IMG/VR virus record: IMGVR_UViG_3300037722_001090 | DNA from: a virus | Lineage: Duplodnaviria > Caudoviricetes | Length of the DNA: 64,000 nucleotides | Reading direction: 5' to 3' (one strand) | Shown here: positions 9,697-42,105 of the stretch, piece by piece | Numbering within the stretch: the first letter of the stretch is position 1 | Layout of the letters: every line of letters begins with the position of its first letter | Position numbers and translations under genes: made by a program | Notes under the pieces: generated by a model | Seen by the model: the letters and a program-made list of their open reading frames with translations, nothing else | The model's database searches: none | Told to the model about the DNA's origin: nothing

Positions 9697-10086
9697 TTAA
9701 ACTCTATAGACAAATACTTTTAACCCAAGAGCTTTAGCATTTGCAATCATATTTTTTGTACCAGGACTAACACCATCCCAAATAGCAATAAGCGCTTCAG
9801 CATTTTCAGCCATCAACTTATTACGCCTAAGTCCAGCATAAGCATCATACTTTTTACCGAATTTATTAACTTTAACTCTAGCATCAGGATGATTAATATC
9901 ATCCCATTTAGCAGGATAAGGATCAACTACTACGTTATTCTCCTTTGCCCATACTTCACCAAGTGTATCAACTCCAGGTGCACGGCCACTAACTACGCAT
10001 GAAACATCAAAACCTGAAGCCTTAATAGCCTCTCTAATAGCATCTAAGCTTACAATACTTCTACTTCCAGCGATAATAGTCTTCAT
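9697..10086 (-). CDS. SLOG/YspA-like (DUF2493) protein
   Basis: IAGSR, SGRAPGVD, AGLRRN, WDGVSPGT. Confidence 0.82.
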   Translation of the reverse strand: MKTIIAGSRSIVSLDAIREAIKASGFDVSCVVSGRAPGVDTLGEVWAKENNVVVDPYPAKWDDINHPDARVKVNKFGKKYDAYAGLRRNKLMAENAEALIAIWDGVSPGTKNMIANAKALGLKVFVYRV

Positions 10087-10301
10087 TAATCCTCCATCAT
10101 TACTTTAAGATCAGCATCACAATATTTACACTCTTCAGCAGCTTTATGCCAAACAACTTCCCATCTACCTTTATTTTTAGGTAGAATATGAGCATTGTTA
10201 CCAGCATCTATTTGTGTTCTTTTAATTACAAGTGCTAGCATTTCACTTTTAACGTTAGCTCTAAGGTGAATGACCTTGGCTTTAGGTAGTTCAATATCCA
10301 T
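10086..10301 (-). CDS. hypothetical protein
   Basis: 71-aa ORF translationally coupled to the next gene. Confidence 0.6.
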   Translation of the reverse strand: MDIELPKAKVIHLRANVKSEMLALVIKRTQIDAGNNAHILPKNKGRWEVVWHKAAEECKYCDADLKVMMED

Positions 10302-10326
10302 ATTTTTATTCCTATAGAGTTTAAAA

Positions 10327-10362
10327 TGGTGCCCCTGGTAGGATTCGAACCTACGACAAGTG
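10327..10362 (-). pseudogene. 3' half of a disrupted tRNA (probably Arg)
   Basis: GTAGG-TTCGAAT-CCTAC-CAGGGGC-A-CCA; pairs with the 5' half at 11086-11117. Confidence 0.85.
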
Positions 10363-10363
10363 A

Positions 10364-10373
10364 GTTAATAACA
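10364..10373 (+). promoter_or_regulatory. GTTAATAACA motif variant
   Basis: At the tRNA truncation point, upstream of the HNH gene. Confidence 0.55.
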
Positions 10374-10408
10374 AATATGATTTCGAATCATAAAATAAAG
10401 GAGCTACC

Positions 10409-29927: not shown

Positions 29928-30005
29928 TGGCTAGGGATGAGAGATTCGAACTCCCGCAAGACGCAGGATCAAAACCTGCCGCTCTACCAATTGAGCTAAT
30001 CCCCA
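29928..30005 (-). tRNA. tRNA-Gln(TTG)
   Basis: GCAGG-TTTTGAT-CCTGC; CCA. Confidence 0.9.
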
Positions 30006-30059
30006 ATGAAAAATACAACCTAGTTTCGCACCATGCTAATAGGTTGGAATAATATGTTA

Positions 30060-30207
30060 TTGTGAGGAATAAACGATGAGAGTATATTATACGCGTTCTA
30101 GCCAGTTAAACTACAGCCCTAGATTATATTACACTAGTAGAGCCGTCAGGATTTGAACCTGAATTCCGTCCTTGACATGGAAGTAACTCTTATCTACACC
30201 ATCACAA
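30060..30207 (-). ncRNA. Y RNA-like 1 (YrlA-type, permuted tRNA module)
   Basis: TGTGA-TGGTGTAG-ATAAGAG-TTACTTC ... T arm, closed acceptor, D arm ... CTCATC-GTTTATTCC-TCACA. Confidence 0.8.
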
Positions 30208-30216
30208 AATAAAAAT

Positions 30217-30291
30217 TGGTAGCTCCTGACAGAATTGAACTGTCTTTTTCGCTTTGTAAGAGCGACGTAATGCCCATTATACCAAGGAGCT
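30217..30291 (-). tRNA. tRNA-Val(TAC)
   Basis: TCGCT-CTTACAA-AGCGA; CCA. Confidence 0.9.
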
Positions 30292-30303
30292 ATCTTATAA
30301 ATA

Positions 30304-30391
30304 TGTATAAGGAATTAGCGAAAACGGAAATGTGTGCTTGGTTTATATTCAATTATAAGTAAGAAGTAACCGTTCTCTTCGCCATTATACA
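30304..30391 (-). ncRNA. Y RNA-like 2 (short form)
   Basis: GTATAA-TGGCGAAG-AGAACGG-TTACTTC ... CCGTTTTC-GCTAATTCC-TTATAC; contains GNCGAAG. Confidence 0.78.
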
Positions 30392-30401
30392 ATTCTAAAT
30401 T

Positions 30402-30477
30402 TGGTGGGGCCTTCCGGTAACGATCCGAATTCTTCTGTTCTTCAAACAGACGTGAGCACCTGCTTCACCAAAGCCCC
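30402..30477 (-). tRNA. tRNA-Phe(GAA)
   Basis: TCTGT-TTGAAGA-ACAGA; variant T loop; CCA. Confidence 0.85.
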
Positions 30478-30754
30478 AAATACCTCATCAGTATGTAATT
30501 CGTAAAGTTAAGAGGCATACATTCCATGTACTTTATTACCGCAAGAGGCTCGCTCTTAACTAAATTGTAAACTATAGTCCATATATCCGTTACATTAAGT
30601 GGTTTTGAAACCTATGTCTTCAGTGCCCCTCCAACATACTTTACTTAAACGCCCACTACAAGACACAATGCTTGCTAAAAGTCTCGCGTAATATACAGAA
30701 TTGCCACGTAAACGTGGTCTTCAAGCCCGATAGATTAAATCCAGAGCGGGAACA

Positions 30755-30830
30755 TGGTGTGCGCGGTCGGGATTGAACCGACGACCTGTAGATTAAAAGT
30801 CCACTGCTCTACCAACTGAGCTACGCGTAC
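30755..30830 (-). tRNA. tRNA-Lys(TTT)
   Basis: GTGGA-CTTTTAA-TCTAC; CCA. Confidence 0.92.
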
Positions 30831-30833
30831 ATT

Positions 30834-30974
30834 TTTATTAGGGTATAAGCGAAAAGAGTGTTTAAATCGGATGCTCTACCAACTGAGCTATATCGTTCGC
30901 GTGAGCTTTCAATAATGGGAATTGAACCCATGACCGTCTGAGGGGAAGTATCTCTTATCTACGCCACTAATAAA
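30834..30974 (-). ncRNA. Y RNA-like 3 (YrlA-type)
   Basis: TTTATTAG-TGGCGTAG-ATAAGAG ... ATGGG-TTCAATT-CCCAT ... AGCTCAGTTGGTAGAGC ... CTCTTTTCGCTTATACC-CTAATAAA. Confidence 0.8.
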
Positions 30975-30980
30975 CTTTAA

Positions 30981-31400
30981 TTAACTTGTTCTACCTATAG
31001 TTAGATGTAATCCATAATCATATGGAAAACCCATCTCTTTTCTGATATCAATGAGAAAATCACATTCAACATCAATAAACCAAAAAGGACTTGGCACGCT
31101 TAAGCCAGTTCTATCACCAGCTTGTCTTACGTTGCTACTATAAGTAAATTCTACTTCTAAGCCATTATACTTTTTCCAAAGATCCATATTATTTGGAAAT
31201 GGCTTCTCTCCTCGTATGATCGAAACATGTGAACCCCAAGATGGTTTGTTAAGCTCAACCCCCATCTCTTTAAAGGCCCACCAGCGATAATATCTAGTAA
31301 TATCTGCATCAATATTAAGAACACACCACCAGTCTTTTTTTTTCTTAAGTCCTGGCCTATAAGGATCATACTGAATAATGCCTTTACTGCTATGAATCAT
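30981..31400 (-). CDS. 2H phosphoesterase family protein
   Basis: Two Hx(S/T) motifs: SHVSII and LHLTIG. Confidence 0.75.
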   Translation of the reverse strand: MIHSSKGIIQYDPYRPGLKKKKDWWCVLNIDADITRYYRWWAFKEMGVELNKPSWGSHVSIIRGEKPFPNNMDLWKKYNGLEVEFTYSSNVRQAGDRTGLSVPSPFWFIDVECDFLIDIRKEMGFPYDYGLHLTIGRTS

Positions 31401-31576
31401 TACACTTTATTAGGCGGATTTTCCTGCCAGCGCTTCAGAGCTTTTTCAGCAACAGGATCACCGGGATGAAGTTCAAGATGTTTAGCAAGAATACGCATTT
31501 TATTATCACGAGTACGTGCACGCTTAGCGGCAATTTCACCCGGAGTAGCTTTTTTACCATTTTTACCTTTAGCCAT
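31400..31576 (-). CDS. small basic hypothetical protein
   Basis: MAKGKNGKK..., GGAG RBS. Confidence 0.6.
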   Translation of the reverse strand: MAKGKNGKKATPGEIAAKRARTRDNKMRILAKHLELHPGDPVAEKALKRWQENPPNKV

Positions 31577-31604
31577 GACAAACTCCATAATTCTAGTTAT
31601 AGGT

Positions 31605-31681
31605 TGGTGCCCCATATTGGATTTGAACCAATGACCTTCCGCTTCGTAGGCGGACGCTCTATCCAGCTGAGCTAATGTGGC
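31605..31681 (-). tRNA. tRNA-Arg(ACG)
   Basis: TCCGC-CTACGAA-GCGGA; CCA. Confidence 0.92.
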
Positions 31682-31687
31682 AAATTA

Positions 31688-31830
31688 TTTTACAAGGAAC
31701 AAACGACAACACAAATTTTTAGCGCTCTACCGATTGAGCTACACATATGCTTTTGGCATACATGACAGGACTCGAACCTGCAACCACTCTATTAGCATTA
31801 GATGTAAGTGTTATCTACGCCATTGTAAAA
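31688..31830 (-). ncRNA. Y RNA-like 4 (YrlA-type)
   Basis: TTTTACAA-TGGCGTAG-ATAACAC ... GCAGG-TTCGAGT-CCTGT, closed acceptor, D arm ... GTCGTTTGTTCC-TTGTAAAA. Confidence 0.8.
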
Positions 31831-31841
31831 CTGAAATTTTC

Positions 31842-32001
31842 TTAAGAAATATAAGGAACATTCGGATACAGATAGTTTTTTGTGCTACCATTACAACACA
31901 TGCCCATGTTTCATTATGGTGGACACGCTCGGATTCGAACCGAGACCGCATTATTATAAGTATTGAAGTAACTGTATTCTACACCATTATATTTTTCTTA
32001 A
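31842..32001 (-). ncRNA. Y RNA-like 5 (YrlA-type)
   Basis: TATAA-TGGTGTAG-AATACAG-TTACTTC ... CTCGG-TTCGAAT-CCGAG-CGTGTCC-ACCA ... GGGCATG, D arm ... CTGTATCCGAATGTTCC-TTATA. Confidence 0.8.
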
Positions 32002-32005
32002 ACTT

Positions 32006-32078
32006 TGGTACCGCTGCAGGGAGTTGATACCCCGATTTCCTAGTGGTGTACTAATGGTATTGCTTATACGACAGCGAT
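32006..32078 (-). pseudogene. degenerate tRNA-like gene
   Basis: ATCGCTG/CAGCGGT-A-CCA; non-canonical D, anticodon and T loops. Confidence 0.5.
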
Positions 32079-32178
32079 AAATTTTGGTGCCAGGTATCGG
32101 AATTTAACCGTTTTTCGAAGACATAGGTAATGATCCTAATCCCCAGTGCTGCATAACCAGACCCAACATGATTTCTTT

Positions 32179-32264
32179 TGGTACCCGACCCCGGACTCGA
32201 ACCGGGACGCCTTGCGGCATGGGGCCTAAACCCAACGGCTATACCATAGTTCGCCTAGCCGGGC
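32179..32264 (-). tRNA. tRNA-Leu(TAG)
   Basis: Loop TTTAGGC, long variable arm, CCA. Confidence 0.9.
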
Positions 32265-32271
32265 ACATTGT

Positions 32272-32787
32272 TTAACCATTATATCCTTTAAACCACTCAT
32301 CAAGCTCAGGATCTTTATGTCTTTTAACTATAAACTCATAAAGCATAGGCTGATAAGGTTTATAACTTTTCTTGAAATAGCTCATTCCAGCTTCTTCAGG
32401 TGTTCTATCTGCTTTTTTCTGATTACAATCATGACAAGCAGATGCTACATTGTCCCAGGTAGTCTTACCTCCCTTAGAGGAAGGAACTACGTGTTCAATT
32501 TCAAGTTGTTTTATGGTCAATGATGCGCCACAATAAACACAGCGATAGCCATCTCTTTCAACCATATTTTCTTTGCTGAATCTTAGTCGCTTACCATATA
32601 GCCCTTTAGCTAAATCAAACAGCTTTATCTTCTTTGGAACGAAGCTAGTCTCACGTATATTACTCAAGTCACCTTCGTAATCAACAAGAAAGGCTTTGCC
32701 GTTTTCAATCATATGCTTAGCGCGTCTGGTTGAAACTTTATTGATGCATGCAAAGTCAGCGTTGAGTACTGAAACTGACCCTTTCAT
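32272..32787 (-). CDS. HNH endonuclease (McrA-like fold)
   Basis: ERDGYRCVYCG, EHVVPSSKGG, NVASACHDCNQKKADRTPEEAGM. Confidence 0.9.
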   Translation of the reverse strand: MKGSVSVLNADFACINKVSTRRAKHMIENGKAFLVDYEGDLSNIRETSFVPKKIKLFDLAKGLYGKRLRFSKENMVERDGYRCVYCGASLTIKQLEIEHVVPSSKGGKTTWDNVASACHDCNQKKADRTPEEAGMSYFKKSYKPYQPMLYEFIVKRHKDPELDEWFKGYNG

Positions 32788-32821
32788 AATACACACTAGA
32801 CCTTTCTTTTTATTTTATTGT

Positions 32822-32899
32822 TGGTGTGACCGAGGAGATTTGAACTCCCGTTCATTGATTCACAGTCAATGCGATTAGCCTAGCTATCTTACAGTCACC
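32822..32899 (-). tRNA. tRNA-His(GTG)
   Basis: ATTGA-CTGTGAA-TCAAT; encoded G-1, with A rather than C at 73. Confidence 0.88.
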
Positions 32900-32902
32900 A
32901 CA

Positions 32903-32986
32903 TTGCAGGTACATGGGGAATCGAACCCAAAAGTGAAGAGTTTTGGAGGCTCTTGCTAACCCAGCTAGCTTTACACTCACGCACCT
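32903..32986 (-). tRNA. tRNA-Trp(CCA) with an enlarged D region
   Basis: Loop CTCCAAA; AGGTGCG/TGTACCT-G. Confidence 0.75.
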
Positions 32987-33423
32987 AAAATCGAGCTAGT
33001 TTTGTACATCGGAAACTAGCAACCTTCTGCTTACTTATCGTGTAAGTGTCCCAGACAATAAACATACAAATAAAGGGCAGGGTTTTTACCTGCATCAATA
33101 GACAATCCTTTCTTAAGGGACTGACCCTCACTAAAGAAGGTTACATATTTATATGCTTATTTTCATATAATGAGTTCTCTCCACTCAATAAGTCAAGCCT
33201 TGAAGCTACATGCAAGTCGCTATGCTTCTTACATATACCTTACCGTCAATACGGAGTATGCCGGCTTTCACCACTTTAATCAATAATCCACTCTTGGCGT
33301 TCCTTCCAAGCGATATCTGTCAATTCAGATCTAAATGGTGCGCATTCATTTTTATGGTACTCTTAGAGGGCTCGTAAGCCAAAACCATGCTATTATTGTT
33401 CAGCGTTTAGGAAATATTATTTT

Positions 33424-33468
33424 TGGTTGGGATAACTGGATTTGAACCAGTGACCCCCGAGTTATCAG
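33424..33468 (-). pseudogene. 3' part of the old tRNA-Ile(GAT)
   Basis: CTGATAA-CTCGG-GGGTC-ACTGG-TTCAAAT-CCAGT-TATCCCA-A-CCA. Confidence 0.9.
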
Positions 33469-33472
33469 CTTT

Positions 33473-33546
33473 TGGTACGCTCACTAAGAATTGAACTTAG
33501 ATGGTCCGGTTATCAGCCGAATCCTCTACCGTTGAGGTATGAGCGT
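33473..33546 (-). tRNA. tRNA-Ile(GAT), cassette-borne copy
   Basis: TTCGG-CTGATAA-CCGGA; ACGCTCA/TGAGCGT-A-CCA. Confidence 0.9.
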
Positions 33547-33561
33547 ATAGTTTCGAATTTA

Positions 33562-33571
33562 GTTATTAACA
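33562..33571 (+). promoter_or_regulatory. GTTATTAACA motif
   Basis: 28 nt upstream of the HNH start. Confidence 0.65.
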
Positions 33572-33599
33572 CTTATCACATATTGATAAGGAGTTAATA

Positions 33600-34085
33600 A
33601 TGAATTCATGCTTAAATTGTAGTAAAGAAACACTTAATCCAGTATTTTGTTCACGCTCATGTTCTGCTTCCTATGCTAATAAAATAAAGCCAAAACGTAA
33701 GAAAGAGGGTAAATGTGCAATCTGTAATGAAATAATCTCTGCTTCAAGGGCTTATTGTTCAGATATTTGTCGTGGTAAAGCTAGATCTATTGCCCGTAAA
33801 AATTCTAAAGCAAAAACGGGATATGAAAATATAAAAACCCACCGGCAAAAAGTCAAATTAAGAGCCGTACAATATAAAGGAGATAAATGTCAAATATGTA
33901 ATTATGATAAAACACCAGTTAATCTATCATTTCATCATTTAAATCCAGGTAAAAAAGATTTTAACCTTAGTGGTAATTATCACTTAACCTGGGAGACAAT
34001 ACAGGCTGAACTTGATAAATGTATTTTATTATGTATGAATTGTCATGGAGAAGTTCATGTAGGAATTATAAAAATTCCAGACTGA
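33600..34085 (+). CDS. HNH homing endonuclease
   Basis: CLNC, FCSRSC; CQICNY, SFHH, KCILLCMNCHGEVH. Confidence 0.9.
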   Translation: MNSCLNCSKETLNPVFCSRSCSASYANKIKPKRKKEGKCAICNEIISASRAYCSDICRGKARSIARKNSKAKTGYENIKTHRQKVKLRAVQYKGDKCQICNYDKTPVNLSFHHLNPGKKDFNLSGNYHLTWETIQAELDKCILLCMNCHGEVHVGIIKIPD

Positions 34086-34096
34086 GCTATACCCCA
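34077..34096 (-). pseudogene. 5' fragment of the old tRNA-Ile
   Basis: TGGGGTA-TA-GCTC-AGTCTGG; acceptor complements TATCCCA. Confidence 0.85.
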
Positions 34097-34102
34097 ATAA
34101 AC

Positions 34103-34170
34103 TGTGGAAGAACTGACGAGTCATCGTCAACAGGATATCACTTGCAACCCTACAGGAGGGAAATTCTTCC
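34103..34170 (-). ncRNA. tRNA-like element with an acceptor stem
   Basis: GGAAGAA/TTCTTCC-A; hairpin TGACGA-TGAC-TCGTCA. Confidence 0.4.
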
Positions 34171-34218
34171 ATAACTTTTTTTTAACTGGAGCGGGTAATC
34201 GGGCTACCTGCTTTTTAT

Positions 34219-34293
34219 TAGAGCGGATGGTCGGGATCGAACCGACGACAAACAGTTTGGAAAACTGCAATTCTACCACTGAATTACACCCGC
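34219..34293 (-). tRNA. tRNA-Gly(TCC)
   Basis: GCAGT-TTTCCAA-ACTGT; CCA not encoded. Confidence 0.9.
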
Positions 34294-34308
34294 ATTGAAC
34301 TTTTTAAC

Positions 34309-34393
34309 TAGTGGGACGGATAGGACTCGAACCTATGAAACCCGAAGGTGGAAGATTTACAGTCTTCTGCAATTGCCACTATGCGACTGTCCC
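34309..34393 (-). tRNA. tRNA-Tyr(GTA)
   Basis: GAAGA-CTGTAAA-TCTTC, long variable arm. Confidence 0.92.
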
Positions 34394-34760
34394 ATGATGC
34401 CACCCATAGGTGGACTTTTATTTATTGATTGGCCCCCTTCTGATCTAAAGAGCATTTAATCAAATCCGCTTGAACCAATCTTCTAGATATAATTGAGGAT
34501 TTTCTTTATAGACGTGAACTCATCCTCTGCAAACATGTCTTTCCGATAAGAGTGTAGGATTATTTTATCTTACGGGAGCTTACTCCGCTACTTCAATACC
34601 GCTAGGCTTCACCTGATTGCTTATGTCAGTCACGCCATCACCGCACATAAGGCGTGCGTCCCAGTTTCCTCTTATCTAGCAACTCAAGCCATAGACGCCT
34701 GATCCGTTCAGGTCAATTAAGAACACGATATCACAATCGGCCCTCTATGGGTTTCGTATT

Positions 34761-34814
34761 TGGTGCCAGACCAGCTGCAACCATGAATCACAGCTCTCTC
34801 GAGATCCGTCTGGC
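34761..34814 (-). ncRNA. mini tRNA-like element
   Basis: GCCAGAC/GTCTGGC-A-CCA enclosing only about 36 nt. Confidence 0.45.
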
Positions 34815-34830
34815 TTTTTGTTAAACTAAT

Positions 34831-34905
34831 TGTGGACCCTATCGGGCTCGAACCGATAACCTCCTAAGTGCAAGTCAGGTGCTCCCCCAGTTGAGCTAAG
34901 GGCCC
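34831..34905 (-). tRNA. tRNA-Ala(TGC)
   Basis: CCTGA-CTTGCAC-TTAGG; G3:U70. Confidence 0.92.
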
Positions 34906-34916
34906 ATTGTAAAATT

Positions 34917-34990
34917 TGGTCGAAAGTGATGGACTTTAACCACCGGCCTCCTCCACCCAAGGAGGTGCCCCTTCACCGGGCCGACTTTCG
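34917..34990 (-). tRNA. atypical tRNA-Pro-like gene (6-nt anticodon loop)
   Basis: CGAAAGT/ACTTTCG-A-CCA; CCTCC-TTGGGT-GGAGG; T loop TTAAAGT. Confidence 0.6.
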
Positions 34991-34997
34991 AAATTTT

Positions 34998-35076
34998 TGG
35001 ATGCGGATGCTAGATTTGAACTAGCGATCTTTTGGTTATGAGCCAAATGGGATAGGCCAGACTTCCCCAATCCGCA
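34998..35076 (-). tRNA. tRNA-Met(CAT)
   Basis: TTTGG-CTCATAA-CCAAA; TTCAAAT; CCA. Confidence 0.85.
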
Positions 35077-35102
35077 AAACCATGTAGTTTTTTTTATGAA
35101 AC

Positions 35103-35600
35103 TTAAGAAAGCAAGTTCATTGCTTTAACAAACTTTGAAGCTCCAATGATTTCAGCAGCATCATAAAAAGCATTTACTTCTTCCTGCGTTGCAATACGCA
35201 TATTCTCTTCAGTAAAATGAGGAAGATTATTGCCTACAGCACCACCAATATCGACAGCATTCTTGCCTTGATATACAGCAATAAGCTCTCCAATAGCATA
35301 GCTATGACTGTTAGTATTGTCAAGAAGAAGAATCATAGCACCTTTGGGTGCTCCAAGGACAGAAGGCAGCAAAATATCTTTGGATTTAGTAGTGATCTTT
35401 TCACCAATAAGTTCTCCTACAATACCAATAATATCTCTTTTGCCACCAGAGCAAAAGTTACCCGATCCATTGATAAGAGCTAGAAGCTTTTTAGCCTTCT
35501 CACTAGGCTCTTTCTCTTTTTCAGTATAAGCTTTTTCAAGAATAGCAGACAATTGCTTTGTTGCTTCTAGAGACATTGCTCTAAGTTCTTTCAGATCCAT
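35103..35600 (-). CDS. hypothetical protein
   Basis: Start MDLKELRAM; weakly resembles the 54927-55469 ORF (R.A..EE...F). Confidence 0.7.
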   Translation of the reverse strand: MDLKELRAMSLEATKQLSAILEKAYTEKEKEPSEKAKKLLALINGSGNFCSGGKRDIIGIVGELIGEKITTKSKDILLPSVLGAPKGAMILLLDNTNSHSYAIGELIAVYQGKNAVDIGGAVGNNLPHFTEENMRIATQEEVNAFYDAAEIIGASKFVKAMNLLS

Positions 35601-35637
35601 TTTAAAATTTCCTAAAAAGTTGTTTAAAGATACGGTG

Positions 35638-35988
35638 TTACATTTCAGAAATAAAACAATGACCATCATGTTCAACGGCCACACGAGTAGCAGGACCTAA
35701 AAGGTCACTATATTTACGAAGCCATAAACTGATTGTTGGTTGTGCTACACCAGTACTGAGAACGGCATTATAAAGCTCCTTGAACTTAATGGGAGCAGAA
35801 AATCTCCCACTTCTTCCACGGCCTAAGCGATAGTTAGGTCCAGCAGCAGCTTCAAGCTCTTTCGCAATAATACGGCGGGCTTTATATCCATATTGAGCAC
35901 CATGTGTAGGTACTCCTGGGATTTCTGCTTGTTGACGAAATTTCACTGCACGACAATCATTAAGCGCTTGTAAAAATTCCTTAGTCAT
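35638..35988 (-). CDS. hypothetical protein
   Basis: 116-aa ORF with a GAGG RBS. Confidence 0.7.
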   Translation of the reverse strand: MTKEFLQALNDCRAVKFRQQAEIPGVPTHGAQYGYKARRIIAKELEAAAGPNYRLGRGRSGRFSAPIKFKELYNAVLSTGVAQPTISLWLRKYSDLLGPATRVAVEHDGHCFISEM

Positions 35989-36010
35989 ACTAAAAATTCC
36001 TCAAAAATGT

Positions 36011-36085
36011 TGGCGGCATAGACCGGGATTGAACCGGCAACTTCCTATTCGACAGACAGGCACTCTACCATTGAGTTACTACGCC
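36011..36085 (-). tRNA. tRNA-Asp(GTC)
   Basis: CCTGT-CTGTCGA-ATAGG; G73; CCA. Confidence 0.92.
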
Positions 36086-36094
36086 AGTTAATTT

Positions 36095-36177
36095 TGGCTC
36101 TGAGAGTTGGATTTGAACCAACGACCTCGCTTTTTAAAGGCGGCCACCTACGCGCTCTACCACTGAGCTATCTCAGA
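36095..36177 (-). ncRNA. tRNA body with a distorted anticodon arm (contains CTTTAAA)
   Basis: Canonical acceptor, D and T arms; about 9 extra nt in the anticodon region. Confidence 0.65.
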
Positions 36178-36191
36178 ACACTATTCAGTTT

Positions 36192-36270
36192 TGGTTACCA
36201 GGACCGGAGTTGCACCGATGACCACCTACCCGTGTAGATAAGTAGCTCTTTTACTGAGTCTTACCCGGCA
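36192..36270 (-). tRNA. atypical tRNA (Val-like, 8-nt loop ATCTACAC)
   Basis: TGCCGGG/CCTGGTA-A-CCA; T loop TGCAACT. Confidence 0.5.
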
Positions 36271-36284
36271 ACATAATTTTTTAT

Positions 36285-36360
36285 TAGCAGTCGCACCGAG
36301 GATCGAACTCGGCTCTCAATCTTGAAAGGATTGCGTCCTGGCCTACTAGACGATGCAACC
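36285..36360 (-). tRNA. tRNA-Glu(TTC)
   Basis: CAATC-CTTTCAA-GATTG. Confidence 0.9.
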
Positions 36361-36375
36361 AAAAACCTTAAGTAA

Positions 36376-36453
36376 TGGAGCCCACTATCGGATTCGAACC
36401 GATGACCTACGGGTTACAAATCCGTTGCTCTGGCCGAACTGAGCTAAGCGGGC
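36376..36453 (-). tRNA. tRNA-Thr(TGT)
   Basis: Loop TTTGTAA; CCA. Confidence 0.92.
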
Positions 36454-36460
36454 AATTAAT

Positions 36461-36534
36461 TGGTGGGCCTTATCAGACGTTACCCTGATCCAACTGCATG
36501 TACTGTGCAGCTGAGCAACTTACACTATCGTCCC
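36461..36534 (-). pseudogene. degenerate tRNA-like gene
   Basis: CCA end; CTGCA-CAGTACA-TGCAG arm; mismatched acceptor. Confidence 0.45.
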
Positions 36535-36560
36535 ATATTAAATTTTTTATTACTACTTAT

Positions 36561-36652
36561 TGGCTCCCCAGAGTGGGCTCGAACCACTATACCGCTCTCG
36601 CGGAATACACTTGATTAACAGTCAAGCCTCTTACCAATTAGAGTACCGAGGA
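36561..36652 (-). tRNA. tRNA-Asn(GTT) with a long variable arm
   Basis: CTTGA-CTGTTAA-TCAAG; variable hairpin TTCCGC-GAGA-GCGGTA; G73; CCA. Confidence 0.85.
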
Positions 36653-37189
36653 ATGGTATTTTTTATATCTTTTTCTTACAGCAGCTTCAGAAATATCTAG
36701 TATCTCTGAAATTTGTACATTAGTCATGGTCTTTTTTAGTTCTGTTAAATCTATTTTATCCCAATTGACTTTTCCTGATAGCTTAGCTGCACAATTATGA
36801 GAACAAGTTTTATTATACATTGGTTTTGAAGCACCACAAACAGGACACTCATTAATTTTAACAGTTATCATCTTGTATTCAGCATATTTTTCATTAAAAT
36901 ATTGTTTAACTTCAGGACTAGTTCTTATTCCTGAATGTATTTCGCAATGACAATTATGACATAAAAGAATACATTTTCTTAATTCTATAATAATTTTTTC
37001 CCAAGCCTTAGGATTACCTCTTATTGCTCCAAGAGTAAATTCTTTTTTACTAGGATCAAGATGGTGCAAAGCTAACGCGTCATTACACTTATCATATCCA
37101 CAACAAGAGCATTTACCTCCCATTGATAATACAATTCTTTCTTTTGTTTTTTTACGCCACTCTTTAACACGCTCAGAACCTTCACTCAT
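36638..37189 (-). CDS. HNH homing endonuclease with a C-terminal HTH
   Basis: CSCCGY, LALHH, KCILLCHNCHCEIH; stop codon lies inside the tRNA-Asn 5' end. Confidence 0.9.
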   Translation of the reverse strand: MSEGSERVKEWRKKTKERIVLSMGGKCSCCGYDKCNDALALHHLDPSKKEFTLGAIRGNPKAWEKIIIELRKCILLCHNCHCEIHSGIRTSPEVKQYFNEKYAEYKMITVKINECPVCGASKPMYNKTCSHNCAAKLSGKVNWDKIDLTELKKTMTNVQISEILDISEAAVRKRYKKYHSSVL

Positions 37190-37219
37190 AGAACCTCCAA
37201 CATAATTATTAACTATACA

Positions 37220-37229
37220 TGTTAATAAC
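37220..37229 (-). promoter_or_regulatory. GTTATTAACA motif
   Basis: 30 nt upstream of the HNH start. Confidence 0.65.
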
Positions 37230-37356
37230 TACATTATGGTTCTAAGAGTTTTACATTTTTAAAACGAGCACTGGGAGCTTGGTACTCTCTATCACGATCA
37301 AGTCGTGCTTCGCCTACCAGTTTTATCTAGTACTTAGACTCATTTTAATAATTTAT

Positions 37357-37429
37357 TACCCAAGAACAAACGAAAACAGTGTTGGTTTCAATTCAAAGGT
37401 GAAGTAACTGTTTTCTAACACTATGGGTA
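37357..37429 (-). ncRNA. Y RNA-like 6 (short form)
   Basis: TACCCA-TAGTGTTAG-AAAACAG-TTACTTC ... CTGTTTTCGTTTGTTCT-TGGGTA. Confidence 0.72.
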
Positions 37430-37448
37430 TATTTTTAACTTTTTCTTA

Positions 37449-37525
37449 TGGTCGGAATAGCAAGAATCGAACTTGCGACCTCTCCCTCCCAAGGGGAGCG
37501 CTCTACCAGGCTGAGCCATATTCCG
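37449..37525 (-). tRNA. tRNA-Pro(TGG)
   Basis: CTCCC-CTTGGGA-GGGAG; CCA. Confidence 0.93.
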
Positions 37526-37790
37526 AAAATATAATTAGTCTATACATGTTTGTCTTTTTAGGAGACTGGTTATAACCCAGTATAGTAGGTATCTGCCTAT
37601 TGACAGAATTTTGCCACACTAATTTAATACATTATTTAATTGTCAATGAACTTAATCAACACTACGAAATAGATTAGTTGAAAGCTTAATCATATCATTC
37701 GATATATTGATTTCAAATTTTTTAAAAAGAACAACTACAAAAATAGCAAAAATTAAACATAAATACCAAAACATAGCGTATCCTTAAATT

Positions 37791-37820
37791 AAAAAACCGC
37801 AGGGATTATCTCCGCTGCGG
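37791..37820 (-). terminator. intrinsic terminator
   Basis: CCGCAG..CTGCGG hairpin followed by a T run on the minus strand. Confidence 0.7.
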
Positions 37821-38085
37821 CTAAAATAAGAATATGTATTATATTACTTAAGTAGTTACGCAGCTAGTATTAGTTGCCCAGAGATTGCCTAGATTCTTAT
37901 TATCATGGCTAGCAAAGGCTGGTATAAATGGGCGCTCAATAATTTGATACACGGGTACATTCATCTCAAGAGGTTTAAGTCTTGAATTGCATGAATAGCA
38001 CGCTTGTGTTTGAGCTAAAGAGCAACAACAGATCATTTTACTAATACTTCCTTTTCAAAAATAGCACGACTTGTGTGCTTATGTT

Positions 38086-38095
38086 TGTTAATAAC
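38086..38095 (-). promoter_or_regulatory. GTTATTAACA motif (not endonuclease-linked)
   Basis: Upstream of the small Cys-rich ORF 37848-38036. Confidence 0.5.
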
Positions 38096-38130
38096 TGGTT
38101 ATGTTTTTTTACGGAAAACTTTATTTAAGA

Positions 38131-38284
38131 TGCTAGAGAACATGCGATAAGAGAGATGGCCGAAGCCGTTCATACCGGTGCGTTTACCAATTTCGCCACC
38201 CCTCCATAAAAGTGGAGGACGCAGGACTCGAACCTGCAAATATCCGGTCCCAATAGAAGTAACTCTTATCTATCACTACTAGCA
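38131..38284 (-). ncRNA. Y RNA-like 7 (YrlA-type)
   Basis: TGCTAG-TAGTGATAG-ATAAGAG-TTACTTC ... GCAGG-TTCGAGT-CCTGC, closed acceptor, Leu-type D arm GGCGAAATTGGTAAACGC ... CTCTTATCGCATGTTCT-CTAGCA. Confidence 0.8.
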
Positions 38285-41094: not shown

Positions 41095-42105
41095 CTAAAT
41101 GTTATTTAAGATTTCGCCAAATACTTCACGTTGGATAAGACGGACAAGCCAGTCTTCCCAGCGCTTACGATTTACTTCACTGGGATACTCAGAAATAGCA
41201 GTAAGCTTTTCACAAGTATCAATTAGAGATTCCATTAAGGGAAGAACTTCCGTTAAATAATCCATCTCTCCGTTTTTAATTTTTCGTAGCGTAGAGCCAC
41301 AGCTTAATGGATACTGTATAGTACCAACAGTCATTATGGAGATAAGCTGAAAAGCAGCACGAATAGCATGACTTATCGCTTTCCAATCAATACCTTCATT
41401 AGCTTCTGCCTTCTTAGCTCTAGCGCCATATTCATCATACTTCTTTTTTATGCCATCACGCATATATTCAAGAGTAACAGTTTCCTGAAACTTCTGACCA
41501 CATACTTGATACATACGATATTGGTTCTTATCTCCAGCATCAGGAGACAGTTTATGGATATGTTCACCGGCAGGCAAACAGTCCCAAGTACCATCTAGCT
41601 TAATGCTAATGTTACGATCCACAACAAAATCAAGAACCGCTTTCATTGCAATAAGACGAGAGCCTTTAACTCCATATTTAGCAGCTTGTGAGCGAGCATA
41701 TCCAATAAATGATTTTAATTCGCTTGTATAAAACTCTGATCTAGAAGCAGTCATCTCGTCCCAGATTACAGAAGTAGCAAATATTTTATCTTTAGGAATA
41801 TGCAACATATCAAGAGCAGCAGTATCGCCGTCCATAGCAAGTTTAAGGAAATAATTAAGAGAATAGAATTCAATATCTACATCATCTTTACTGTTCTTCC
41901 CATCTGTTTCTTTTGTCTTAAAATGAATAGATTTTGGATAAAGACCAAGATAAACTTCTCTTTTTGTAGGCATATAAATGCCTTTAAAGTCCCAGTCTGA
42001 ATCTTCAGTATTTGCACCATAAAGACGAGAGCCAAATACTCCAAACATTAAAACATTCAAGTTTCCTATTTCAGGAAACATTTTTAATACTTTTTGATAA
42101 TTCAT
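41095..42105 (-). CDS. Pol-beta-superfamily nucleotidyltransferase (RlaP-like)
   Basis: FGSRLYG..TEDSDWDFKGIY, D.E.YSL..F, WKAISHA.R. Confidence 0.87.
   Translation of the reverse strand: MNYQKVLKMFPEIGNLNVLMFGVFGSRLYGANTEDSDWDFKGIYMPTKREVYLGLYPKSIHFKTKETDGKNSKDDVDIEFYSLNYFLKLAMDGDTAALDMLHIPKDKIFATSVIWDEMTASRSEFYTSELKSFIGYARSQAAKYGVKGSRLIAMKAVLDFVVDRNISIKLDGTWDCLPAGEHIHKLSPDAGDKNQYRMYQVCGQKFQETVTLEYMRDGIKKKYDEYGARAKKAEANEGIDWKAISHAIRAAFQLISIMTVGTIQYPLSCGSTLRKIKNGEMDYLTEVLPLMESLIDTCEKLTAISEYPSEVNRKRWEDWLVRLIQREVFGEILNNI

Follow-up and report, generated by a model that had tools for sequence, protein, structure and literature searches.

A phage Ro60 locus with seven Y-type RNA elements

The 64,000-nt window analyzed here is the whole stretch of DNA taken from IMG/VR virus record IMGVR_UViG_3300037722_001090 and looks like a piece of a large phage genome. 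It contains an ortholog of Ro60 and, downstream of this gene on the same strand, an array of tRNA genes and Y-type RNAs. Seven Y-type RNA elements are present, five long (E1, E3, E4, E5, and E7) and two short (E2 and E6). They are listed with their coordinates in the window and their scores against R1, a covariance model of the long form described below, and for E3 and E4 also against the Rfam model of YrlA.

30065-30201, minus strand: E1, long; R1 78.0 bits
30310-30384, minus strand: E2, short; R1 39.3 bits; handle helix GAGAACGG/CCGUUUUC
30841-30966, minus strand: E3, long; R1 87.2 bits; Rfam YrlA 28.9 bits
31695-31822, minus strand: E4, long; R1 104.4 bits; Rfam YrlA 40.9 bits, E 2e-6
31854-31986, minus strand: E5, long; R1 78.6 bits; also matched by a strict descriptor
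37362-37423, minus strand: E6, short, handle alone; R1 37.6 bits; handle helix GAAAACAG/CUGUUUUC
38136-38278, minus strand: E7, long; R1 62.8 bits
39456-40883, minus strand: Ro60 ortholog, 475 aa; Pfam TROVE 4.7e-13 and vWA_Ro60 3.2e-11

All seven elements share one paired-end structure, which we call the handle. Its 5' strand reads UGGYGWAGA, an 8-nt helix strand, and a single-stranded UUACUUC; its 3' strand supplies the complementary 8-mer followed by CGYUUGUUCC. The 17-nt handle core TAGATAAGAGTTACTTC occurs six times with up to three mismatches, against 0.42 expected, and none of 100 shuffles reaches six. E2, the seventh element, was located through the model rather than the 17-nt motif. 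The 8-bp helix covaries between paralogs, pairing as GAUAAGAG/CUCUUAUC in E7, GAUAACAC/GUGUUGUC in E4, GAAAACAG/CUGUUUUC in E6, and GAGAACGG/CCGUUUUC in E2. At the site of the 5' Ro motif, GNCGAA(N0-1)G, the consensus of the handle family is GGYGWAG, a degenerate form of that motif; E2 alone carries it exactly (GGCGAAG), E3 and E4 with one mismatch (GGCGUAG), and E1 and E5 with two.

On the Ro60 strand, E7 lies 1.2 kb and E6 2.0 kb downstream of the Ro60 gene, and E1 to E5 lie 7.5 to 9.4 kb downstream. A Ro60 search of IMG/VR returned 22 loci at 37 to 67% identity (these and other IMG/VR loci are given L numbers), and nearly all of them contribute between two and six elements built on this handle, located on the Ro60 strand and mostly within ~1 kb of Ro60. 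The closest relative is L001, with a Ro60 67% identical to that of the window. The likely L001 counterpart of the short E2 (L001:20090-20219) retains a T arm and a second hairpin, so short Y RNAs may be trimmed long forms.

Five long forms carry a circularly permuted tRNA-like module

Each long form runs through the handle 5' strand, a V region, a T arm, the acceptor 3' strand, a linker, the acceptor 5' strand, 2 nt, a D arm, and the handle 3' strand. The T arm has a 5-bp stem and the sequence UUCRAnU, and the handle occupies the position of the anticodon arm in all five. The parts are as follows, all on the minus strand.

E1: T arm 30146-30162, stem UCAGG/CCUGA; acceptor 3' strand 30139-30145; ACUA and 14-nt linker 30121-30138; acceptor 5' strand 30114-30120, 7 bp; D arm 30095-30111, GUUU-AACUGGCUA-GAAC
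E3: T stem AUGGG/CCCAU; acceptor of 5 bp; 14-nt loop; D arm GCUC-AGUUGGUA-GAGC
E4: T stem GCAGG/CCUGU; 9-bp acceptor hairpin with 5-nt loop; D arm GCUC-AAUCGGUA-GAGC
E5: T arm 31928-31944, stem CUCGG/CCGAG; acceptor 3' strand 31921-31927; ACCA and 11-nt linker 31906-31920; acceptor 5' strand 31899-31905, 7 bp; D arm 31882-31896, UUGU-AAUGGUA-GCAC
E7: T arm 38221-38237, stem GCAGG/CCUGC; acceptor 3' strand 38214-38220; 8-nt linker ACUUUUAU (A and 7 nt); acceptor 5' strand 38199-38205, 6 bp and a G-G mismatch; tRNA-Leu-type D arm 38180-38196, 3-bp stem and 11-nt loop (GCG-AAAUUGGUAAA-CGC)

An earlier note on this DNA had read the five long forms as T arm, acceptor 3' strand, linker, acceptor 5' strand, and D arm, with the Ro stem replacing the anticodon arm, and had identified this as the YrlA tRNA-mimic layout. 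Both readings are confirmed for all five, and the layout is the published "circularly permuted tRNA" design. Three details that the note had singled out are likewise borne out: the acceptor-ACCA and 11-nt linker of E5 (acceptor of 7 bp), the acceptor-ACTA and longer linker of E1 (ACUA in the RNA, with a 14-nt linker and a 7-bp acceptor), and the Leu-type D loop of E7, whose D-arm 19-mer is identical in at least 50 phage tRNA-Leu genes. The minimum free energy (MFE) fold of E1 yields the handle, a V hairpin, the T arm, the acceptor, and the D arm. In E4, a GCCA is located within the acceptor hairpin. E7 has two further structures, a 5-bp helix at the position of the anticodon stem and a small 3' hairpin, and both show compensatory changes relative to the E7 ortholog in L001.

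Covariation and tertiary contacts argue for a tRNA-shaped fold

R1 was seeded with 14 canonical long forms, namely, E3, E4, and 12 from relatives; E1, E2, E5, E6, and E7 were outside the seed. The model nevertheless matches all seven window elements over their full length at 38 to 104 bits, while junctions between true neighboring tRNA genes in the window reach only ~28 bits and match only the inner part of the model. In the alignment of the 14 forms, 93.8% of cells are paired, compared with 72.4% after shuffling (0 of 500 shuffles reach the observed value) and 37 to 53% when the partners are slid. Compensatory changes affecting both sides occur at 21 of 28 pairs, and covarying pairs are found in the handle helix (8/8), the acceptor (7/7), the T stem (4/5), and the D stem (2/4). 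A strict descriptor for permuted modules, applied to the window and to 20 shuffles, has three matches in the window, E5 among them, and none in the shuffles. Thermodynamic stability was rejected as a line of evidence, as the MFE z-scores of E1, E3, and E5 are near 0; the support thus comes from covariation and the model.

The tertiary nucleotides of tRNA are also present. U8, A14, G18G19, U54U55C56, A58, and the G53-C61 pair are kept in all five window modules. In the family, 19 nonredundant modules were compared at the Levitt pair 15:48: 12 have A:U, 5 have G:C, 2 have A:C, and none has G:U. All five window modules fit this pattern. Together, the tertiary nucleotides and the covarying Levitt pair argue for a real L-shaped fold.

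These data bear directly on whether the elements could be nonfunctional debris left when tRNA genes were rearranged, the array being fast-changing and rich in homing endonucleases. HNH genes and odd tRNA-like fragments do occur in the array, and the short forms may be decayed long forms, given the T arm retained in the likely L001 counterpart of E2. Such debris would be hard to reconcile with strong covariation in four helices, with covariation of the tertiary pair, and with classes conserved across phages of 37 to 67% Ro60 identity. Covariation already brings this explanation close to refutation, and we regard it as barely credible.

The modules fall into separately conserved classes

The Rfam consensus arms of YrlA are GCGGGuUCGAgaCCCGC (T) and GUAGCUCAauuuGGUAGAGC (D). 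E4 matches both and E3 the D arm only; E7 has the near-invariant YrlA T arm only, and E1, E5, and the D arm of E7 deviate. The earlier note had assigned the D arm of E3 and E4 to a Lys/Val type. The sequence it pointed to, AGCUCA..GGUAGAGC, is present in both, but it is simply the near-invariant YrlA arm of the Rfam consensus, and the Lys/Val assignment is not supported. The YrlA-type D arm is also the commonest bacterial D arm and occurs in 15 of the 89 ARAGORN tRNA calls that we collected from this phage and its relatives, two of which are miscalled Y RNAs. These two miscalls join parts of a Y RNA (handle and T arm) and are L018:9394-9459, called as tRNA-Leu(tag), and L009:1157-1235, called as tRNA-Gln(ctg); tRNA counts in such phages can therefore be inflated.

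For the divergent D arms, we scanned IMG/VR for exact matches, and the counts given here are drawn from the matches listed. The D-arm 19-mer of E7 has at least 119 exact matches, at least 50 of which fall at nt 8 to 26 of called phage tRNA-Leu genes, all with discriminator A; E7 has A73 in common with them. At least eight of the listed matches stand in a permuted context: the L001 ortholog, two tandem pairs of true tRNA-Leu genes (L038 and L046), and Leu-type modules on an unrelated handle (L026/L056/L058, L076, and L090). The Leu class is found again in L001, L026, L076, and L090. In contrast, the D-arm 17-mer of E5 has at least 16 exact matches, and among the matches listed none is in a called tRNA. 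They include permuted modules of other phages with the same handle (L144) or a different one (L157), and the E5 class occurs in L003 and L022 as well. By its distribution, the E5 D arm would be a second Y-RNA-specific class. The E1 D arm has a near-identical counterpart in L018, in a unit with natural tRNA order described below, and its exact 17-mer is found in L158 and L159. The regions around L158:1321-1337 and L159:2676-2692 encode a 70-nt tRNA-like RNA with this exact E1-type D arm; a UUGG tetraloop caps the anticodon stem of this RNA, which hence lacks an anticodon, and ARAGORN calls it tRNA-???.

Permuted modules of the Leu class also sit on an unrelated handle, a helix with ACAGCAA, in L026/L056/L058, L076, and L090, and L090 has the exact T arm of E7 and an acceptor-ACCA-5 nt-acceptor layout. 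With the E5 class included, modules on this other handle family (a short helix with ACAGCAA or GCAGCAA) were seen in L026, L056, L058, L076, L090, and L157, so identical head classes occur on two handle families. Among the additional loci found through D-arm matches (L023 to L159), tblastn detected a nearby Ro60 in L064 alone, L064 and L001 being one and the same contig.

L001 carries orthologs of E7, E6, E4, and E3 in matching order, adjoining matching tRNA genes (Lys, Phe, and Gln):

L001:12773-12934: counterpart of E7
L001:15170-15254: counterpart of E6 (short)
L001:18584-18704: counterpart of E4
L001:19048-19174: counterpart of E3

Between window and L001, E4 keeps 2/7, 4/4, and 5/5 identical pairs in the acceptor, D stem, and T stem, and E7 keeps 3/7, 4/4, and 4/5, with compensatory changes in E7. 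In a rough tree based on ~120 aligned positions, E3, E4, and E7 each pair with their L001 partner, and E5 groups with elements of L003. Every class but that of E1 is found again in other Ro60 phages, the E5 class in phages at ~50% Ro60 identity. From these comparisons, we sort the five heads into no fewer than four classes, each of them old and conserved separately from the others: canonical YrlA (E3 and E4), Y-RNA specific (E5), tRNA-Leu-like (E7), and rare (E1). On this reading, module diversity would reflect old paralogy, with the classes held by selection, rather than recent independent capture.

The earlier note had proposed that the modules were independently derived. They do differ from one another, as it said, but recent independent capture is contradicted by the positional orthologs of E3, E4, and E7 in L001 and by the E5 class in phages at ~50% Ro60 identity. 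Capture from this phage's own tRNAs was likewise rejected. In a stem-by-stem comparison with the 89 tRNA calls, no module exceeds background: the best matches share 8 to 11 of 16 identical pairs, and unrelated tRNA pairs reach 8/16 at the 95th percentile and 10/16 at the 99th. Arm-level alignment to the called tRNAs gave only generic matches, apart from a likeness of E3 to tRNA-Lys and a partial likeness of E5 to tRNA-Gln in L003 and L012. The D region of E3 (30873-30891) is identical at 19/19 positions to that of the tRNA-Lys(UUU) gene at 30755-30830, which starts ~10 nt downstream, and to that of no other called tRNA. The corresponding pair in L001 is not identical, and the identity in the window may reflect local gene conversion.

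Some modules could still have been taken separately from tRNA genes, through a tandem junction or by gene conversion, with the E7 class, from tRNA-Leu, as the strongest candidate. The E7 D-arm 19-mer identical in at least 50 phage tRNA-Leu genes, the A73 they have in common, and the Leu-type permuted modules on a different handle (L026, L076, and L090) would all fit. So would the L001 ortholog of E7, which keeps ACCA, a 12-nt linker, and a hairpin resembling a variable arm, and the true tandem tRNA-Leu gene pairs in L038 and L046, whose matching acceptor stems are the raw material of the dimeric-tRNA model. The E3 identity with its neighboring tRNA-Lys and an enrichment of NCCA after the acceptor (see below) point the same way. 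Yet the D arm of E3 and E4 is the generic one of YrlA, that of E5 is in no called tRNA among the matches listed, no module rises above background among the 89 calls, and all five align full-length to one model, V region and connectors included. Selection for Leu mimicry could equally yield a consensus Leu D arm. We therefore consider independent capture as a general account rather unlikely, and any capture would be old, as the classes are common to distant phages. For the E7 class taken by itself, a separate tRNA-Leu origin is plausible, with a probability that we would place somewhat short of even, and the same data fit selection for Leu mimicry.

Encoded NCCA ends and two wirings of one RNA

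An NCCA directly 3' of the 7-nt acceptor 3' strand is found in 4 of 28 family members, compared with 0.31 expected (P of ~3e-4). The L001 copy of E7 has ACCA and a 12-nt linker and keeps the variable-arm-like hairpin, and window E7 has lost its NCCA, apparently by a 7-nt deletion relative to L001. The acceptor end of E5 has G1-C72, G2-C71, G3.U70, and A73, a set that among 87 phage tRNAs occurs only in the three tRNA-Ala.

Three relatives (L018, L016, and its copy L013) contain the same RNA in natural tRNA order, with ends at the acceptor. The parts here follow one another as acceptor 5' strand, D arm, handle 3' strand, closing loop, handle 5' strand, V region, T arm, and acceptor 3' strand:

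L018:9305-9462: tRNA-order unit, unambiguous; ends in ACCA
L016:9625-9752 and 9758-9885 (copies in L013): tandem tRNA-order units, each with 7/7 acceptor and 8/8 handle pairs

Unconstrained folding of the tRNA-order units gives cloverleaves, with z-scores of -3.8, -3.8, and -2.3. The middle of the L016 tandem can also be read as one permuted unit, at 76.5 bits. E1 and E4 each show ~75% identity to both pieces of the L018 unit, and E1 is not singled out as its ortholog, E4 being equally similar.

Tandem duplication of tRNA-order units is a textbook route to circular permutation. The earlier note had likened the modules to the 3' half of one tRNA joined to the 5' half of the next. In E5 and E1, the NCCA and linker do resemble such a junction, and NCCA enrichment and the tRNA-order relatives agree with it; the idea was already published, and an origin from two different neighboring tRNAs is the less likely version. 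Because the strands pair, the halves more likely come from two tandem Y/tRNA chimeras or from tandem identical tRNAs. Taken this way, the modules would refine the published dimeric-tRNA proposal, as both acceptor strands, the discriminator, CCA, and spacer can still be seen here.

The same features raise the question of processing. In E5, E1, and the E7 copy in L001, RNase P might cut at the acceptor 5' strand, and trimming or repair would then give these two-piece RNAs a free CCA end that may even be charged. E5 would suit this well, with its 7-bp acceptor, A73, encoded CCA, 11-nt single-stranded linker, and Ala-type set. Encoded CCA is usual in the tRNA genes of this phage (19/24 in the window), the phage encodes a CCA-adding enzyme, and the tRNA-order relatives L018 (ACCA) and L016 end at the acceptor. 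There is also a precedent, since in vivo RNase P cleaves the YrlA of Mycobacterium smegmatis, which has a 7-bp stem, and CCA is added to it (PMC4201824). Against this, relatives of the E5 class in L003 and L022 close the acceptor with a 4-nt loop and window E7 is without CCA, so a free end is not conserved within a class; moreover, no cleavage of the Salmonella and Deinococcus Y RNAs was seen by Chen et al. 2014 (PMC4201824). On balance, we see processing into two-piece RNAs as possible but lean against it.

In an extension of this idea, each module class would mimic a particular isoacceptor and could be charged once RNase P had opened the linker. Opened E5 would be alanylated through G1-C72, G2-C71, G3.U70, A73, and CCA, the identity set of tRNA-Ala and transfer-messenger RNA (tmRNA), and the Leu class would be leucylated through its exact tRNA-Leu D arm and A73, with ACCA also present in the L001 copy. 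Ro60 would then carry anticodon-less look-alikes of aminoacyl-tRNA that titrate or sense synthetases, EF-Tu, or acceptor-end defense enzymes, and the tRNA-order relatives L016 and L018 would be a one-piece version of the same molecule. We hold this to be very improbable.

Genomic setting of the array

The sequence of the window occurs in DNA runs from sediment and soil metagenomes, and no RNA run was among those listed as containing it. A megablast search of the region against the INPHARED phages found no close deposited relative, returning only a single 72-nt tRNA-Tyr match. Of the 24 tRNA genes that ARAGORN calls in the window, 19 lie at 29928-37525. Two genes for RNA-related enzymes lie upstream of the array, on the same strand as the Y RNAs and Ro60:

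41095-42105, minus strand: RlaP-family nucleotidyltransferase; Pfam RlaP 2e-17
50827-52236, minus strand: CCA-adding enzyme with an HD domain, farther upstream; Pfam PolyA_pol 1.6e-30, PolyA_pol_RNAbd, tRNA_NucTran2_2, and HD

Three genes for HNH-type endonucleases are scattered in the tRNA/Y RNA array, at 32272-32796 and 36638-37189 on the minus strand and at 33600-34085 on the plus strand. The array also holds uncalled RNAs on the minus strand that are CCA ended or form tRNA-like hairpins (36190-36300, 36470-36540, 32000-32170, and 33425-33470), as well as a weak match to the tRNA-Sec model at 32905-32980 (28.5 bits) that is not called as a tRNA. Structured stretches free of open reading frames (ORFs) lie at ~34425-34800, 33000-33400, and 30480-30750. 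Elsewhere in the window, 10281-10393 on the minus strand has a T arm, an acceptor 3' strand, and ACCA with no obvious 5' half close by (R1, 20 bits) and could be a split or degraded tRNA. The genes flanking the RNA region include TerB and TerC, a radical SAM gene, and a NadM-Nudix fusion (47455-47907, 49078-50043, and 27273-29389, all on the minus strand). A scan for promoters and terminators found nothing specific to the Y RNA start sites.

A proposed model of tRNA-shaped adaptors for phage Ro60

We think it likely that the seven elements are paralogous YrlA-type Y RNAs that partner the upstream phage Ro60 and furnish it with several tRNA-shaped adaptors. By analogy with known Ro60/Y RNA systems (PMC4201824, 10.1101/312249, PMC12135203), the handle would most likely dock phage Ro60. 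In the five long elements, the L-shaped tRNA-like domain would be the effector end, recruiting a tRNA-binding partner. One Ro60 ring could in this way be paired with several different adaptors, each showing its own tRNA "face" to host or phage proteins that bind tRNA; candidates include processing, repair, modification, or charging enzymes and defense nucleases. We favor several partners, one for each class, because four head classes have been kept. By analogy with the M. smegmatis YrlA, RNase P is predicted to open E5 and, less surely, E1, with trimming to a CCA end afterward. Adaptors of this kind would suit a phage with its own tRNAs, RlaP, and CCA-adding enzyme.

Several observations weigh against this model. 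Chen et al. 2014 give as criteria GNCGAA(N)G near the 5' end and a YrlA within 4 kb of Ro60 on the same strand (PMC4201824). Here, the exact motif is limited to E2, and E1 to E5 lie beyond 4 kb, yet the order of the elements is common to L001. Every element falls short of the 69-bit gathering threshold of Rfam YrlA (E4, 40.9; E3, 28.9; and E1, 17.8 for a partial match), and the Rfam model has no match to E5 or E7 at an E value of ≤10. Four divergent classes in one genome misfit the single-effector picture of YrlA. In addition, a free CCA end is not essential for every class, as window E7 has lost its NCCA, and the MFE z-scores are nonsignificant for E1, E3, and E5.

The large tRNA array and the repair-type enzymes around it could alternatively suggest decoys, in which the modules would soak up nucleases or modifying toxins of tRNA-targeting defenses. 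Phage tRNAs counter tRNA-cleaving defenses (PMC11464382, PMC11555353), and a Ro60-like gene beside a tRNA array counters the ppl defense (PMC11482910). The modules, however, lack an anticodon loop, the site that the best-known anticodon nucleases read and cut, so they could be decoys only for factors that read the elbow, the D arm, or the acceptor end. We judge the decoy function improbable. An anti-defense role of the Ro60 particle as a whole may be entertained as a live possibility.

If the adaptor model is right, its interest lies in specificity. YrlA has been thought to show one conserved tRNA elbow to one effector; this lineage keeps at least four separately conserved heads on one handle, one of which copies the tRNA-Leu D arm exactly and another of which has an Ala-type acceptor end with encoded CCA. 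This suggests that Ro60 can couple to several tRNA-specific partners, and E1 to E7 are concrete RNAs with which to seek them. The RNA partners of phage Ro60-like genes also matter for the recent link of these genes to anti-defense (PMC11482910).

Comparison with known systems

YrlA (Rfam RF02553) is a tRNA mimic that has been described as a circularly permuted tRNA and has a crystal structure (PMC4201824; 10.1101/312249). Like YrlA, the window elements are encoded on the Ro60 strand and run from handle through V region, T arm, closed acceptor, and D arm back to the handle, with tertiary nucleotides and a covarying Levitt pair; E3 and E4 also bear the T/D consensus of the family. The layout of Chen et al. 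2014 (a T arm, closed acceptor stem-loop, and D arm within paired ends) is found in all five long forms, and so are the tRNA tertiary contacts, including the compensating Levitt pair 15:48 (Chen et al. 2014; Wang et al. 2018). The elements differ from YrlA in their variant handle (UUACUUC / CGYUUGUUCC), in having five tRNA-like paralogs in one genome rather than a single one, in three D arms unlike the near-invariant arm, and in the placement of most of them 7 to 9 kb from Ro60 inside a tRNA array. In the published view, the near-invariant D and T stems of YrlA reflect reading by one effector. With scores below the Rfam threshold and three of five heads breaking the invariant D/T rule, the elements are better placed on a divergent phage branch of YrlA than as plain members. 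We would accordingly describe them, from sequence, as a richer version of known YrlA RNAs and not as a new kind of element.

M. smegmatis YrlA has a 7-bp acceptor that RNase P can cut, followed by a CCA end, and E5 and E1 share this geometry. There, cleavage precedes the addition of CCA, which E5 instead encodes ahead of an 11-nt linker, as at a junction of tRNA genes; cleavage of the window elements is a prediction. Thermus phage phiLo offers the nearest solved structure. Its Ro60 (PDB 9KOP/9L5Y) is the best solved-structure match of the window Ro60 (E 2.5e-13, residues 37 to 464) and binds phage Yrl RNAs and host PNPase (PMC12135203), and in both phages Y-like RNAs accompany the gene. Yrl1 and Yrl2 of phiLo, however, lie upstream of the gene; their description is of a stem-bulge-stem that bears a CGAA motif, and it reports no module resembling tRNA (PMC12135203). 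The Ro60-like gp130 of phage Bas63 is encoded directly upstream of a tRNA array and counters the ppl defense, as described in a preprint whose authors suspected Y RNAs hidden among the tRNAs (PMC11482910). That protein is a different and more divergent one, and the anti-defense role was shown for the protein alone (PMC11482910).

Two other kinds of split or permuted RNA resemble the modules in part. Two-piece tmRNA (Rfam RF04321) likewise has a T arm, acceptor 3' strand, CCA, linker, and acceptor 5' strand, with G3.U70 and A73. Its model scores E5 at 25.1 bits and E1 at 20, below its gathering threshold of 47, and the matches are confined to model positions 36 to 95; E5 and E1 have no tag reading frame or pseudoknot, and the ~50 nt that follow are the D arm and handle. 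On these grounds (score, tag frame, and pseudoknot), E5 was rejected as a two-piece tmRNA. In the permuted tRNA genes of Cyanidioschyzon and relatives (Soma et al. 2007, as described in 10.1101/312249), the 3' half also comes first and the acceptor is closed in the precursor. By that description, those genes mature to tRNAs with an anticodon loop, whereas the handle replaces the anticodon arm in the window. Permuted true tRNA genes were rejected as an identity for the five long forms, given the handle at the anticodon-arm site and the absence of any call by ARAGORN or the Rfam tRNA model.

The dimeric-tRNA model (Sim and Wolin 2018, quoted in 10.1101/312249) has the first of two tRNAs supply the T arm and the second supply the D arm. 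The acceptor in that quoted version derives from the spacer, whereas in E5, E1, and the E7 copy in L001 (L001:12773-12934), both strands of the acceptor are retained along with the discriminator, (N)CCA, and a spacer. The tRNA-order relatives, in tandem in L016, look like intermediates of this route. Both RNase P opening and an origin from two halves are thus already published for YrlA (PMC4201824; 10.1101/312249). The two wirings, with ends at the handle or at the acceptor, and the copies that retain NCCA and spacer are the clearest sequence-level support that we found for a tandem tRNA-type origin of YrlA. Relative to the YrlA and Ro60 literature compared here, what is new is a single genome with five tRNA-like Y RNAs whose heads are class specific, a D arm exactly that of tRNA-Leu, an Ala-type CCA end with spacer, and the presence of permuted and tRNA-order wirings within one family.

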